IMG/VR virus record: IMGVR_UViG_2563366976_000004 | Origin: a virus | Taxonomy: Duplodnaviria; Heunggongvirae; Uroviricota; Caudoviricetes | DNA length: 6,832 bases | Strand: one strand, 5' to 3' | Shown here: positions 1,803-6,832 of the stretch, in pieces | Numbering within the stretch: position 1 is the stretch's first letter | Layout of the letters: each line of letters starts with the position of its first letter | Program-made: the position numbers and the translations under genes | Notes under the pieces: model-generated | What the model was told of the DNA's origin: nothing | Databases searched by the model: none | Seen by the model: the letters and a program-made list of their open reading frames with translations, nothing else

Positions 1803-4800
1803 ATGACAGTAAAAATTTCTGGCGTGCTTAAAGATGGCACAGGAAAACCAGTACAGAACTGCACCATTGTGCTGAAGGCCAGACGAACCAGCAGCACGGT
1901 GGTGGTGAACACGGTGGCCTCTGAAAATCCGGATGAAGCCGGACGTTACAGCATGGATGTTGAGCATGGCCAGTACAGCGTCACCCTGCTGGTTGAAGGT
2001 TTTCCGCCTTCACATGCCGGGACCATTACCGTCTATGAAGGTTCCAGACCAGGTACGCTGAATGATTTTCTCGGTGCCATGACGGAGGATGATGTCCGAC
2101 CGGAGGCACTGCGCCGCTTTGAGCAGATGGTGGAAGAGGTGTCACGTAACGCCTCCGCGGTTGCACAGAATACGGCAGCCGCGAAAAAATCAGCCAGCGA
2201 TGCCAGTGCATCAGCCAGCGAGGCGGCAACTCATGCAACCGATGCTGCAGCCTCAGCACGTGCCGCCAGCACGTCAGCCGGACAGGCCGCGTCGTCGGCT
2301 CAGTCAGCGTCTTCCAGCGCAGGAACGGCATCGACAAAGGCCCGTGAAGCAGCAAAAAGTGCTGCTGCTGCAGAGTCATCAAAAAGCGCGGCAGCTACCA
2401 GCGCCAGTGCCGCGAAAACGTCAGAAACGAATGCCGCAGCATCACAAAAATCGGCAGCCACTTCTGCATCCACAGCGACCACGAAGGCGTCAGAAGCTGC
2501 CACCTCGGCACGGGGTGCGGCGGCCTCAAAAGAGGCAGCGAAATCTTCAGAAACGAATGCATCATCAAGTGCCAGTAGTGCAGCTTCCTCGGCAACGGCG
2601 GCAGGAAATTCCGCGAAGGCGGCAAAAACGTCCGAGACGAACGCTAAGTCTTCTGAAACAGCAGCGGGACAGAGCGCCTCAGCTGCGGCAGGTTCAAAAA
2701 CAGCGGCTGCATTATCTGCCAGTGCCGCGTCAACAAGTGCCGGGCAGGCCTCAGCCAGTGCCACCGCCGCCGGAAAATCGGCAGAAAGCGCCGCATCATC
2801 CGCTTCAACAGCCACAACGAAGGCTGGCAAAGCCACTGAGCAAGCCACTGCAGCAGCGAGGTCTGCTTCTGCAGCAAAAACCTCTGAAACAAATGCAAAG
2901 ACTTCAGCAGACAATGCTGCTTCCTCTAAGGCGGCAGCCGCATCGTCAGCCAGTTCAGCGGCGTCATCGGCATCATCTGCGTCTGCTTCAAAAGATGAGG
3001 CGACCAGACAAGCGTCAGCAGCGAAAGGTAGTGCCACGACAGCAACAACGAAAGCATCAGAGGCGGCAGGCAGTGCGACGGCTGCATCTCAGAGCAAAGT
3101 TGCTGCTGAATCCGCGGCAACGCGCGCCGAGACAGCAGCAAAACGGGCAGAGGATATTGCATCCGCCGTGGCGCTGGAGGATGCGAGCACGACGAAAAAG
3201 GGGATAGTACAGCTCAGCAGTGCAACAAACAGCACCAGTGAAAAGCTGGCGGCAACGCCAAAGGCAGTTAAAACTGTTAAAGATAGTTCAGTTCAAAAAA
3301 CTGGCGACACAATGGGAGGGCAGTTAAAAATCAGCACGATAAATGCTCTTCGAATATTCAACCAAGCCTTTGGCCTTATTTTTAGGCGTTCCGAAGATCA
3401 TCTTCATCTTATTCCGACTAATGAAGGGGAGGGGGAAAATGGAGACATCGGTTCATTAAGACCATTCTCTATAAACTTAAGATCAGGGTTGGTGTCCATC
3501 GGTAATGGACTAAAAGTTGGTGGTAGTGTTACTGGTAATTTGACCGGAAACGCAGATACTGCGACCAAGATCAAGACAGCACGTAAGATTGGGGGCGTGG
3601 CATTTGATGGATCGGCAGATATCAACTTGCCTGGAGTCAACGCTACCGGTAATCAAAACACTACAGGTAATGCTGCGACCGCCACGAAACTTCAGGCAGC
3701 CAGAACGATTAACGGTGTGTCATTTGATGGTAGTGCAAATATCACATTGACCCCTTCAAATATTGGGGCATTGGCATTAACTGGAGGGACTCTTTCAGGT
3801 GGTTTAACTGCTGCTGGTGAGGTTATTTCAAGGTCAGCAAATGGTCTGCGTATTGCCTATGGCAACTATGGATTCTTTATCCGAAATGATGGATCAAACA
3901 CATATTTTATGTTGACAGATTCGGGTAACAGTCTTGGTACGCACAATAGCTTAAGGCCGTTTATAATTAGTAACCATACTGGCAATGTTACAATTGCAAC
4001 TAAATTAAACGCGAGTGGTGGTATCACTGGATCTTTATCGGGTAATGCAAGCACAGCAACCAAATTGCAAACTGCAAGGACAATTAACGGCGTAAAATTT
4101 GACGGCTCGGCAAATATTGAAGCGTTTCCGCCAGGTGTTCCGCTGCCGTGGCCATCAGATACACCACCTGCAGGTTATGCGATCATGCAGGGGCAGACGT
4201 TTGATAAGGCAGCATATCCGAAACTGGCTATTGCCTATCCTTCAGGTGTTATTCCAGATATGCGCGGCTGGACAATCAAGGGCAAACCCGCCAGTGGCCG
4301 GGCCGTATTGTCTCAGGAACAGGACGGCATAAAATCGCACACCCACAGCGCCAGCGCATCCAGTACGGATTTGGGGACGAAAACCACATCGTCGTTTGAT
4401 TACGGCACTAAATCCACGAATAACACCGGGGCGCATACGCACAGTCTGAGTGGCTCTACGGGGTCTGCCGGTGTTCATACTCATGGTAATGGTATTCGTT
4501 GGCCAGGAGGCGGCGGTTCTGCGTTAGCATTTTATGATGGCGGTGGGTTCACTTATGTCCAGAATTCACAGTATCAAGTAAGCCCGGAGACTTCTTCCTA
4601 TAGATCGTATTATCAACGTATTCAGACACAGTCAGCAGGTGCTCATACCCACTCGCTGTCTGGTACTGCAGCAAGTTCTGGCGCACATGCACATACTGTA
4701 GGTATTGGTGCGCATACGCACTCCGTTGCGATTGGTTCACATGGACACACCATCACCGTTAACGCTGCGGGTAACGCGGAAAACACCGTCAAAAACATCG

Positions 4801-4829
4801 CATTTAACTATATTGTGAGGCTTGCATAA
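1803..4829 (+). CDS. stf: Side tail fibre protein, long StfR-like variant (1008 aa)
   Basis: N-terminus [22 protein letters not shown]... and C-terminus ...[18 protein letters not shown] match lambda Stf / E. coli prophage Stf proteins as I recall them. It contains the conserved fibre motif [24 protein letters not shown], repeated GNAxTATKLQxARTINGVxFDGSANI units and C-terminal HxH repeats. SD GGTGGA lies upstream of the ATG; the stop TAA (4827-4829) overlaps the tfa start. Confidence 0.9.
2148..3182 (+). repeat. Ala/Ser/Thr-rich low-complexity repetitive region inside stf (about residues 116-460)
   Basis: About 345 codons dominated by A/S/T/K/E, with recurring degenerate units such as [18 protein letters not shown] and [10 protein letters not shown]. 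The matching GC-rich DNA repeats (e.g. aaaacgtcagaaacgaatgc near 2416, 2541, 2626, 2877) generate long spurious ORFs in the other frames. Confidence 0.8.
3546..4122 (+). repeat. Three copies of a ~28-aa tail-fibre repeat inside stf
   Basis: [28 protein letters not shown] (about 3546-3627), [28 protein letters not shown] (about 3666-3747) and [28 protein letters not shown] (about 4041-4122). Copies 1 and 3 are each preceded by a related ~60-aa unit (...[38 protein letters not shown]... versus ...[40 protein letters not shown]...). Confidence 0.6.
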
Positions 4830-5413
4830 TGGCATTCAGAATGAGTGAACAAGCACGGACCATAAAAATTTATAATCTGCTGGCCGGAACTAATGAATTT
4901 ATTGGTGAAGGTGACGCATATATTCCGCCTCATACAGGTCTGCCAGCAAACAGTACCGATATTGCACCACCAGATATTCCTGCTGGCTTTGTGGCTGTTT
5001 TCAACAGTGATGAGGCATCGTGGCATCTCGTTGAAGACCATCGGGGGAAAACGGTTTATGACGTAGCGTCAGGGGACGAGTTATTTATTTCTGAACTCGG
5101 TCCGTTACCGGAAAATGTTACCTGGTTATCGCCGGAAGGGGAGTTTCAGAAGTGGAACGGCACAGCCTGGGTGAAGGATACGGAAGCAGAAAAACTGTTC
5201 CGGATCCGGGAGGCGGAAGAAACAAAAAACAACCTGATGCAGGTAGCCAGTGAGCATATTGCGCCGCTTCAGGATGCTGCAGATCTGGAAATTGCAACGG
5301 AGGAAGAAACCTCATTGCTGGAAGCCTGGAAAAAGTATCGGGTGTTGCTGAACCGTGTTGATACATCAACTGCACCTGATATTGAGTGGCCTACGAACCC
5401 TGTCAGGGAGTAA
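4829..5413 (+). CDS. tfa: Tail fibre assembly protein Tfa (194 aa)
   Basis: Translation [54 protein letters not shown]... is nearly identical to lambda Tfa as I recall it, with the same 194-aa length. The start overlaps the stf stop in TAATG, suggesting translational coupling. Confidence 0.9.
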
Positions 5414-5462
5414 TCATTGGGATTATGCCGCAGCACGTCTTAAGCAAGAACGTGCTGCGGTT
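5248..5462 (+). repeat. Direct repeat copy A (tfa 3' end plus downstream hairpin)
   Basis: Aligns by eye with 6297-6512 at high identity (scattered substitutions plus one replaced 13-14-nt patch). The stretch cgtgttgatacatcaactgcacctgatattgagtggcct is identical in both copies. Confidence 0.85.
5428..5460. other. Perfect 11-bp-stem hairpin in the convergent tfa / methyltransferase intergenic region
   Basis: CCGCAGCACGT (5428-5438), 11-nt loop, ACGTGCTGCGG (5450-5460). A T6 run follows on the + strand only after about 10 nt (5471-5476), so it is not a canonical intrinsic terminator in either direction. Confidence 0.45.
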
Positions 5463-5467
5463 GGATG

Positions 5468-6136
5468 CTATTTTTTCCCTGAAGCGGAAAACATTACTAC
5501 AGTACCTTGAACCTTGGTTTTAACATTCTCGAAATGCTCTGAGAGTATATGTGTTAAGCCTTCTTCGGAATCTTTTGTGTTTGAAAAGATGCCTTTCTGA
5601 TTGTAAATGCGCATCAGTTTTTGACCGAAGCTATTGTGCACAACTCCATCGCCAAGAATTGTGGCTCCGTATAGAGTTCCATCGTCAGTTAAGGCCTGCG
5701 CCGCATTGCGTATTACACAGCTTTTTGTAGATATATTTCCAGGCAGGCAGTGAAGAAGGTAAAACATGGAAATGGAATCAAATTGACCATGTAACGCCGC
5801 GGGATAAGGTTCAAAAACATCATGGCTAATTTTATGTTTAATTTTTGATTCCCCAGCCCTTGTAGATGCCGCGTTCAGGCTAGCTTCGTTCAAATCCATT
5901 AAAGATATCAGACTACTCTCAGGTACGTGAGTAAGGTAAAACCCAGTTCCAACACCAATATCCAGATGGTTGTTACCTACATGTTCCAGAAAGTGTGGAA
6001 GAAGGTGTTCCTTTGTAGGACATCCCCATGCAAGCCGATTTGATACTCCCAAAACCCACCAGTCATAAAGCTTTAGGGTAAGTGGTGTGTAAATTTTAGC
6101 CCCATCATCTGTGTTTTTTTTCATTGATTTCACCAT
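5468..6136 (-). CDS. Class I (Rossmann-fold) SAM-dependent methyltransferase, substrate unknown; true start may be the ATG at 6124
   Basis: 222-aa ORF with motif I HLDIGVGTGF (encoded about 5939-5968), an acidic residue at the expected beta-2 position (LMDLN), a motif II/III-like stretch (HDVFEPYP...GQFDSISMFYLLHCLPG...ALTDDGTLY) and an N-terminal YDWW...RLAWG pattern common in small-molecule methyltransferases. No DPPY/NPPY or cytosine-C5 motifs, and no signal peptide or transmembrane segment. GGTGA lies 5 nt upstream of the internal ATG at 6122-6124, while the first ATG lacks an SD. Confidence 0.75.
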   Translation of the reverse strand: MVKSMKKNTDDGAKIYTPLTLKLYDWWVLGVSNRLAWGCPTKEHLLPHFLEHVGNNHLDIGVGTGFYLTHVPESSLISLMDLNEASLNAASTRAGESKIKHKISHDVFEPYPAALHGQFDSISMFYLLHCLPGNISTKSCVIRNAAQALTDDGTLYGATILGDGVVHNSFGQKLMRIYNQKGIFSNTKDSEEGLTHILSEHFENVKTKVQGTVVMFSASGKK

Positions 6137-6165
6137 GTTATAGTTTTATTTGTGAATTAAATCAA
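6137..6165 (-). promoter_or_regulatory. Putative sigma70 promoter for the methyltransferase (TTGATT-N17-TATAAC on the - strand)
   Basis: On the minus strand, TTGATT (complement of 6160-6165), a 17-nt spacer, then TATAAC (complement of 6137-6142) abutting the first ATG. This would place the transcription start inside the first codons and favour initiation at the second ATG (6124), which carries the GGTGA SD. Confidence 0.3.
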
Positions 6166-6192
6166 TTATGGCGATGAATTACAAGGGGTTAA

Positions 6193-6462
6193 ATGCTGCC
6201 GCAGCATAGCGATATTGAAATAGCCTGGTATGCTTCGATACAGCAGGAGCCGAATGGCTGGAAGACCGTCACCACACAGTTCCACATCCAGGAATTCAGT
6301 GAGTATATTGCGCCACTGCAGGATGCTGTAGATCTGGAAATCGCAACGGAGGAAGAAAGATCGTTGCTGGAGGCATGGAATAAATATCGGGTATTGTTGA
6401 ATCGTGTTGATACATCAACTGCACCTGATATTGAGTGGCCTGCAAATCCTGTCAGGGAGTAA
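6193..6462 (+). pseudogene. Truncated tfa-like ORF (89 aa): unrelated 35-aa N-terminus fused to the Tfa C-terminal ~54 aa
   Basis: The C-terminal part [52 protein letters not shown] parallels the Tfa C-terminus ([52 protein letters not shown]). DNA homology with tfa begins near 6297. An AAGGGG SD lies 4 nt upstream of the ATG, so expression is possible. Confidence 0.55.
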
Positions 6463-6512
6463 TCATTGGGATTATGCCGCAGATACGTCGTATGCAGGAA
6501 CGTGCTGCGGTT
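6297..6512 (+). repeat. Direct repeat copy B (tfa 3' end plus downstream hairpin region)
   Basis: Second copy of 5248-5462, in the same orientation. The 13-nt central patch of the hairpin (CACGTCTTAAGCA) is replaced by 14 nt (ATACGTCGTATGCA), which weakens the stem. Confidence 0.85.
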
Positions 6513-6620: not shown

Positions 6621-6832
6621 TGAACCGCCCCGGGAATCCTGGAGACTAAACTTCCTGAGAAAGAGGTAAACAGGATGACTAAAAATACTCGTTTTTCCCC
6701 CGAAGTCCGTCAACGGGCAGTCCGTATGGTTCTGGAAAGTCAGAGCGAATATGACTCACAATGGGCGACAATTTGTTCCATTGCTCCAAAGATTGGCTGT
6801 ACGCCGGAGACTCTGCGTGTCTGGGTTCGCCA
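6621..6832 (+). mobile_element. IS3-family insertion sequence, IS629/IS1203-like, left end (continues past the window)
   Basis: The sequence from 6621 (TGAACCGCCCCGGGAATCCTGGAGACTAAACTTCCTGAGAAAGAGGTAAACAGGATGACTAAAAATAC) matches my recollection of the IS629 left inverted repeat and orfA leader. IS3-family ends typically begin with TGA. Confidence 0.85.
6675..6832 (+). CDS. IS3-family transposase OrfA, N-terminal part (3' end outside the window)
   Basis: ATG at 6675 preceded by the SD GAGG. Translation [52 protein letters not shown] is the helix-turn-helix OrfA N-terminus of IS629-like elements as recalled. Confidence 0.85.

Follow-up and report, generated by a model that had tools for sequence, protein, structure and literature searches.

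A methyltransferase gene between duplicated tfa 3' ends at the late end of a lambda-like prophage

The 6,832-nt stretch of viral DNA considered here (IMG/VR record IMGVR_UViG_2563366976_000004), referred to below as the window, comes from a lambda-like prophage and covers its late, right-hand end, as read from its open reading frames (ORFs) and their Pfam matches. Directly after the tail-fibre assembly gene, tfa, and on the opposite strand, it carries a gene whose product is, by motif, profile and structural model, a class I Rossmann-fold methyltransferase dependent on S-adenosylmethionine (SAM), predicted to be soluble. The gene is a very common, already catalogued accessory gene of lambda-like Escherichia coli prophages, neither rare nor new, and it is under purifying selection. 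We are moderately confident in reading it as a captured moron, spread by recombination and expressed in the lysogen, whose product methylates not DNA but a small molecule or lipid head group.

The gene and its cassette

The gene and the elements around it are arranged as follows.

4829-5413, + strand: tfa, tail-fibre assembly protein of 194 aa (Pfam Caudo_TAP, E 1.9e-44; RefSeq annotation)
5237-5462, + strand: left direct-repeat copy, consisting of the tfa 3' end (5237-5433) and a hairpin unit (5435-5462), from a repeat search
5427-5461, both strands: GC-rich hairpin with a 15-bp stem between the convergent tfa and methyltransferase genes, from RNA folding
about 5455-6195 (approximate bounds), - strand: core cassette of ~740 bp, comprising promoter-like element, Shine-Dalgarno sequence, ORF and ~10 nt past the stop, from DNA alignments
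5468-6136, - strand: methyltransferase ORF of 222 aa, convergent with tfa
6130-6134, - strand: Shine-Dalgarno-like GGTGA, 5 nt upstream of the Met5 ATG (6124-6122), read from the sequence
6165-6192, - strand: sigma-70-like promoter candidate (TTAACC, 16-nt spacer, CATAAT), from a consensus scan
6193-6462: 89-aa ORF, what remains of the 3' part of a second tfa (matching only positions 75-130 of Pfam Caudo_TAP; RefSeq: partial tfa pseudogene)
6286-6512, + strand: right direct-repeat copy, 89% identical to the left, consisting of the tfa 3' remnant (6286-6482) and a degenerate hairpin unit (6485-6512), from the repeat search

Counted from its first ATG, the methyltransferase ORF has 222 codons and no internal stop, and its stop codon lies 54 nt from that of tfa; the 222-aa ORF that an earlier reading, made from the sequence alone, had placed on the opposite strand right after tfa is thus present, intact and convergent with it. 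The true coding sequence most probably starts at Met5, at 5468-6124 on the - strand, to give a product of 218 aa and ~24 kDa, because Met1 is not conserved among homologues, including relatives on other mobile elements; Met5 is invariant in an alignment of 34 homologues and is the start position for most of them; positions 1-218 of the phrog_2132 profile align with residues 5-222; and GGTGA precedes the Met5 codon. The block spanning this signal and start, (G/A)G(G/A)TGAAAT(C/T)AATG, is kept in five different genomic contexts.

The sequence-only reading took the gene for imported cargo from a hand count of about 37-38% G+C in two 60-nt lines, against well over 55% in the repeat region of the side tail fibre gene, stf. 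Computation gives 36.7% (5521-5580) and 38.3% (5761-5820), against 59.3% for the alanine-rich stf stretch at 2100-3200. The gene as a whole is 41.1% G+C (35.9% at third codon positions) in a window of 49.8%, and its neighbours are 48-55%, a difference which bears out a foreign composition.

The tfa 3' end is present as two direct copies, one on each side of the methyltransferase gene. The hairpin that separates it from tfa belongs to this repeated unit; it folds with -28.6 and -25.4 kcal/mol (z -4.6 and -4.2), and on the + (tfa) strand a T-run lies 9 nt past the stem. Upstream of the gene, the promoter candidate is retained in the phage, Citrobacter freundii prophage, Salmonella plasmid and Salmonella island copies, the island copy having TTGACA as its -35 hexamer, and homology starts just upstream of it. 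Flank alignments of the window, phage ev243 and three other mobile contexts place the common homology between ~70 nt upstream of Met5 and ~10 nt beyond the stop codon. Since the homology of these mobile-element copies spans promoter-like element, Shine-Dalgarno sequence and ORF, we treat the ~740 bp as the mobile unit.

Linkage to tail-fibre loci across prophages, raised in the sequence-only reading, proved strong: of 80 loci on viral contigs, 78 have a tfa fragment upstream of the gene, mostly at a fixed distance of 135 or 150 nt, and tfa lies downstream at a fixed 61 nt in most. The linkage looks positional rather than functional, because the adjacent Stf proteins range from 31 to 100% identity to that of the window, the flanking tfa 3' repeats being constant, and because relatives of the gene occur without any phage. 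Pairing with a particular tail fibre was rejected on the same spread of Stf identities. In the Rac and Qin prophages of E. coli K-12 a Pin-family invertase gene occupies the opposite-strand slot directly after tfa, pinR (locus L177, 6085-6675) and pinQ (locus L178, 3623-4213) respectively, and the slot is therefore a variable cargo position; the methyltransferase gene is absent from the Rac and Qin tfa ends and from the left end of e14, the only parts of the K-12 genome searched. The gene has the features of a moron: a single accessory gene between phage genes, variable in presence, unlike its neighbours in G+C and preceded by varied tail-fibre modules. Lying between duplicated tfa 3' ends, the cassette is a clean example of a way in which cargo can travel with a tail-fibre recombination hotspot.

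Two annotations overlap this region. RefSeq lists a 45-aa 'hypothetical protein' (WP_001309429.1) at 5386-5523 on the + strand, overlapping the tfa stop codon, the hairpin and the 3' end of the methyltransferase gene; it has no Pfam match and is probably a spurious gene call. The Rfam model RF02111 ('IS009') matches at 5172-5370 on the + strand (225 bits, gathering score 117), entirely within the tfa coding sequence, and may reflect the conserved, repeated tfa 3' region, not a small RNA.

Distribution and family

At least 80% of an 801-nt query is held by 3797 of 5426 complete E. coli genomes (~70%), at up to five places per genome. Several plaque-forming or inducible lambdoid phages carry the gene; in ev243, for example, a different fibre module precedes it, and an ompT-like gene, a hydrolase gene and int follow. 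In the genomes closest to the window no further intact gene intervenes between the methyltransferase gene and attR in ompW. Both observations support the earlier assignment of its position to the equivalent of the lambda b-region, between the tail-fibre genes and att/int. Only copies at least 99% identical, in Escherichia and Shigella, adjoin tfa. Relatives at 79-90% identity are found at the end of a C. freundii prophage, on a Salmonella plasmid with ccdAB and kfrA, and in a Salmonella island with perC and insertion sequence (IS) elements. Short contigs with tfa sequence and a 99%-identical copy of the phage gene also occur in metagenome bins labelled Firmicutes (Bacillus sp., Planococcaceae), and are most likely mis-binned or contaminant.

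On plasmids, tblastn matched 761 records, 603 of them from Klebsiella; the Klebsiella records mostly show two matching places. Erwinia contributed 34 records (53% identity in one listed, from E. pyrifoliae), Prescottella 38 and Rhodococcus 21 (41% in one listed). On the Klebsiella pneumoniae virulence plasmid NZ_CP036191.1 the homologue (locus L179, 2525-3178) lies beside IS1 and rmpA/rmpD. A second gene annotated 'class I SAM-dependent methyltransferase' (locus L179, 11609-12175) is found on this plasmid beyond an iron ABC transporter.

The relatives form a compact family of stand-alone gammaproteobacterial genes. A word-indexed search gave 2296 of them, every one named just 'class I SAM-dependent methyltransferase' or similar, and an exhaustive profile search of 1.8 billion cluster representatives gave 411 clusters at E<=1e-30 and 1757 at E<=1e-3, nearly all matching across the full 218 positions. 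A relative is encoded by 527 species-level genomes, which include Enterobacterales, Pseudomonas, Xanthomonadales, Pasteurellaceae and some Betaproteobacteria. Homologues with 50-68% identity stand singly on chromosomes, and no phage gene lies within 6 kb of them. The G+C of the gene equals that of its flanks in Pseudomonas, Erwinia, Yokenella and Noviherbaspirillum, whereas it is 8-12 points below the flanks in Enterobacter, Klebsiella and Citrobacter; because it matches or departs from its surroundings according to genus, the family looks native to some Gammaproteobacteria and imported into the Enterobacteriaceae. Among longer members no informative fused domain was found, their N-terminal extensions containing no Pfam domain; a single RCC1 fusion looks like a eukaryotic gene model. 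One Salmonella chromosomal homologue lies directly downstream of a gene for a 516-aa protein of the PMT_2 (ArnT-like glycosyltransferase) family (locus L007, 5987-7537), near sseJ, a pairing that is not kept in other genera.

The window protein is recorded as RefSeq WP_000240999.1 and, among PHROGs, as phrog_2132, 'unknown function'. We regard the gene as ordinary moron-type cargo coding an uncharacterised enzyme, a system of known kind that both databases list. The nearest parallel on a virulence element is K. pneumoniae WP_011251259.1, 65% identical to the window protein over 215 aa without gaps. It too is the product of a single AT-rich gene of the same length, carried by a mobile element with an IS alongside, but it lies on the hypervirulence plasmid beside rmpA/rmpD, and the window gene lies on a phage beside tfa. 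We equate it, from gene order and not from a sequence check, with BAH65943.1 of pK2044, a 'putative SAM-dependent methyltransferase' associated with liver-abscess and hypervirulent strains (PMC5126061, PMC9372168); this association is one of linkage to the plasmid and not functional evidence. STM1638 of Salmonella enterica (220 aa), which lies beside rydC and cybB and which we identify by matching position with the Salmonella homologue next to cybB, belongs to the same family at 56% identity and is likewise a stand-alone gene; unlike the window gene it is chromosomal, near the local G+C and without phage genes nearby. The literature mentions it only as a 'putative SAM-dependent methyltransferase' flanking rydC. 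The literature searched contains no functional study of any family member, only 'putative' mentions or use as an association marker.

The lambda morons lom and bor resemble the window gene in being single accessory genes among late or tail genes, of differing composition and varying presence; the window gene has a promoter-like element of its own. Both lambda genes are said to be expressed from the prophage. Their products are outer-membrane proteins, whereas that of the window gene is predicted to be a cytoplasmic enzyme, with no transmembrane segment.

Few accessory genes in the lambdoid prophages of E. coli are as widespread as this one, and its 65%-identical relative is a recurrent marker of Klebsiella hypervirulence plasmids; its interest lies in this prevalence and in its recurrence on virulence-associated elements, not in its architecture.

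The enzyme and its probable role

Profiles, a motif and a structural model support assignment to the class I methyltransferases. Pfam Methyltransf_12, _23, _25 and _11 all score above their gathering cut-offs (Methyltransf_12 with 37.5 bits against 30), and the Pfam matches comprise only generic Methyltransf_* families and MTS. Motif I reads D59-I-G-V-G-T-G65, and its glycines G61, G63 and G65 are at least 90% conserved among 73 family representatives. The AlphaFold (AF2) model, with pLDDT 90.4 and pTM 0.86, has the alternating beta/alpha arrangement and seven-stranded sheet of class I, with a helical N-terminal lid above the active site of a Rossmann core. The sequence-only reading had described SAM-binding motifs, which are found, and the predicted structure has the fold that goes with them.

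The same reading had noted the absence of DNA-methyltransferase motifs and of a restriction, BREX or DISARM partner, and here too the evidence concurs. A regular-expression scan of the protein for the catalytic motifs (D/N/S)PP(Y/F/W) and PCQ found neither, and a single 'ENV' at residues 203-205 lies in the C-terminal region, outside the catalytic core; no DNA-methylase family of Pfam matches; PADLOC returned nothing meaningful, its top match being mad2 (E 0.009, 12.9 bits); and no partner gene of these systems is found within the window.

Nor did any confident match to a well-characterised methyltransferase emerge, the Pfam families being generic, the structural neighbours not close, and no NCBIfam family fitting (PmtA, RquA and CpaM models gave 15.7, 16.9 and 18.0 bits against cut-offs of 390, 175 and 180). 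As had been anticipated, sequence does not discriminate between substrate classes. The structural neighbours are overwhelmingly small-molecule and lipid methyltransferases. PfPMT (the phosphoethanolamine methyltransferase of Plasmodium), silkworm JHAMT, the bacterial PmtA 8ys9, BelI/CysG, DhpI and Coq5/UbiG share with the window protein the Rossmann core and N-terminal helical lid, PfPMT being 44 residues longer; a profile search of sequences in the PDB found JHAMT at E 5.6e-6 and UbiG at 1e-3.

It is among these structural matches that the idea of an RNA (tRNA or rRNA) or protein substrate, by which translation or a host or phage protein would be altered in the lysogen, finds its support, since tRNA enzymes appear at similar Z. 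This idea has a modest chance of being right. The matches of RNA or protein type are, however, a handful among dozens of small-molecule enzymes with equal or better scores; the model shows a catalytic domain alone, 218 aa long, to which no RNA-binding extension is attached; and no NCBIfam RNA methyltransferase model matches. The gene is moreover accessory, mobile and patchily distributed, which the known housekeeping enzymes of RNA modification are not.

Conservation points to particular residues for the reaction. Sixty columns are invariant among 34 aligned sequences at 56-90% identity to the window protein; even at 31-56% identity Y24, H57, D81, S121, H129, G157, N186 and D189 remain invariant, and Y16, D25, W37, C39, the GxGxG glycines, N83, C130, P132, G133 and K138 are at least 90% conserved. 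In the proposed mechanism SAM would be bound through D59-GxGxG65, D81 at the end of strand 2, H105-D106 after strand 3 and D120-S121 at strand 4. An acidic residue ending strand 2 binds the SAM ribose hydroxyls in enzymes of this kind, an analogy that suggests the role of D81; in the model this residue closes strand E76-81, and neither alignment shows any variation at it. The acceptor pocket may be formed by the family-invariant Tyr24, His57, His129, Asn186 and Asp189, together with the nearly invariant Tyr16 and with Cys130. His129 is the probable general base: the pair His129-Cys130 directly follows strand 4, the position of His132 in PfPMT, which we take to be catalytic, as fits the existence of an H132A mutant entry (3ujc). 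Alignment by hhalign with PfPMT, whose sequence as used is identical to PDB 3uj6, places H129 on His132 and Y16 on Tyr27 (E 2e-4, 47% probability). The reaction would transfer the methyl group to N, O or S of a small acceptor that is polar or amphipathic.

As to its history, the phage copy would have been captured from the stand-alone chromosomal family of Gammaproteobacteria, as a self-contained accessory cassette that may bring its own promoter and ribosome-binding site for a soluble 218-aa enzyme. The duplicated tfa ends would supply the homology for its spread among lambdoid phages by homologous recombination, which would explain both its presence in ~70% of E. coli genomes and the many tail-fibre types alongside. 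Transcription in the lysogen probably starts from the candidate promoter, and the benefit presumably goes to the host, by a detoxifying or modifying reaction. We favour such a general cellular, host-benefiting reaction over a phage-specific function because the relatives are stand-alone, some of them compositionally native chromosomal genes, and because the gene recurs on plasmids.

A more specific proposal, to which we allow only a small chance, is that the gene, found both on the lambdoid prophages of ~70% of E. coli genomes and beside rmpA on Klebsiella hypervirulence plasmids, is a horizontally traded host-adaptation factor. By means of a PfPMT-like histidine base its product would methylate a phospho-base, the head group of an envelope lipid or a small molecule derived from host or competitor, and the gene would then be no passive cargo but would bring about a lysogenic conversion that affects colonisation or virulence.

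Several observations weigh against the moron reading or against parts of it. The match to PfPMT is weak at 47% probability and ends at query residue 156 (PfPMT 156); PfPMT Tyr19 aligns with the variable position 8 and so is not matched, and the C-terminal lid is unmatched as well. The family's isoelectric points are neutral to basic, with a median of 8.9, and give no argument against a nucleic-acid substrate; charge was tried as a discriminator between RNA and small molecules and found uninformative. Sites of the promoter scan are no more frequent in the window than in shuffled sequence, the candidate being a consensus match; the methyltransferase (-) strand of the hairpin has no U-run; and the literature searched held no expression data for lysogens. 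Finally, among ORFs within 4 kb at 72 chromosomal loci, no neighbour gene is kept across genera: there is synteny only within genera, mainly Pseudomonas, and generic LysR-type regulators, so that context gives no clue to a pathway.

A function in the service of the phage, anti-defence or a superinfection exclusion linked to the tail fibre, for instance by modification of a receptor or of a defence-signalling molecule, we consider improbable. It would suit a gene that lies in an accessory region beside receptor-binding genes and lom and that in phage contexts is nearly always linked to tfa sequences. The variety of adjacent Stf proteins, on the other hand, argues against pairing with any single receptor specificity; relatives at 50-68% identity are lone chromosomal genes and others are on plasmids; PADLOC found no meaningful match; and the gene points away from the late operon, with a promoter-like element of its own.

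A neutral hitch-hiker between recombining tfa repeats, no longer useful and perhaps silenced, seems less credible again. A recombination hotspot could indeed spread a gene without selection, the searched literature reports no phenotype, and silencing by H-NS would be plausible for a gene so AT-rich. Yet of the 84 full-length copies in the loci examined 82 are intact, comparison with relatives at 67-90% identity gives a dN/dS of 0.10-0.22, the promoter-like element and Shine-Dalgarno sequence are conserved across unrelated mobile contexts, and both Klebsiella virulence plasmids and many chromosomes have retained the family. A decayed or neutral fragment, one of the outcomes that would have told against the sequence-only reading, is therefore unlikely.

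The readings of the protein as an orphan DNA methyltransferase or as kin of YmfD of e14 are barely credible: a similar length (222 and 221 aa) and the SAM-binding motif are all that speak for them, no DNA methylase is among the top structural matches, and Pfam, PADLOC and the motif scan, with neither DPPY nor PCQ, reject a DNA methylase or defence-system component, in line with the sequence-only reading, which had thought a classical orphan DNA methylase unlikely. The resemblance to YmfD which that reading had tentatively suggested did not survive comparison: YmfD is likewise prophage-borne, of similar length and annotated as a SAM-dependent methyltransferase, but it lies elsewhere, next to icd/attL and beside ymfE and lit, and BLASTP against the K-12 protein (b1137) detects no sequence similarity, the best segment scoring 11.5 bits (E=15).

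On the moron reading, which we retain, the protein is small, predicted soluble, well folded and equipped with candidate active-site residues, and its substrate should therefore be tractable by biochemistry combined with metabolomics. Identification of the substrate would give a function to thousands of database entries and test the contribution of the gene to host fitness.

The remainder of the window

The other features of the window are these.

172-984: J, C-terminal part
1052-1651: lom, 3.8 kb upstream of the methyltransferase gene (Pfam)
1803-4829: stf, side tail fibre of 1008 aa
6623-6832, + strand: first part of an insertion sequence of the IS3 family, whose orfA has its ATG at 6675 (Pfam HTH_Tnp_1)

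The insertion is peculiar to this genome: in IS-free genomes identity to the window ends at position 6622, and the closest of these run on into a DUF4376 pseudogene and the attR remnant in ompW. The Ala/Ser-rich, low-complexity part of stf (59% G+C) contains long ORFs in other frames, for example at 2089-3207 (+ strand, 372 aa) and 2300-3037 (- strand, 245 aa), which look like artefacts of composition.

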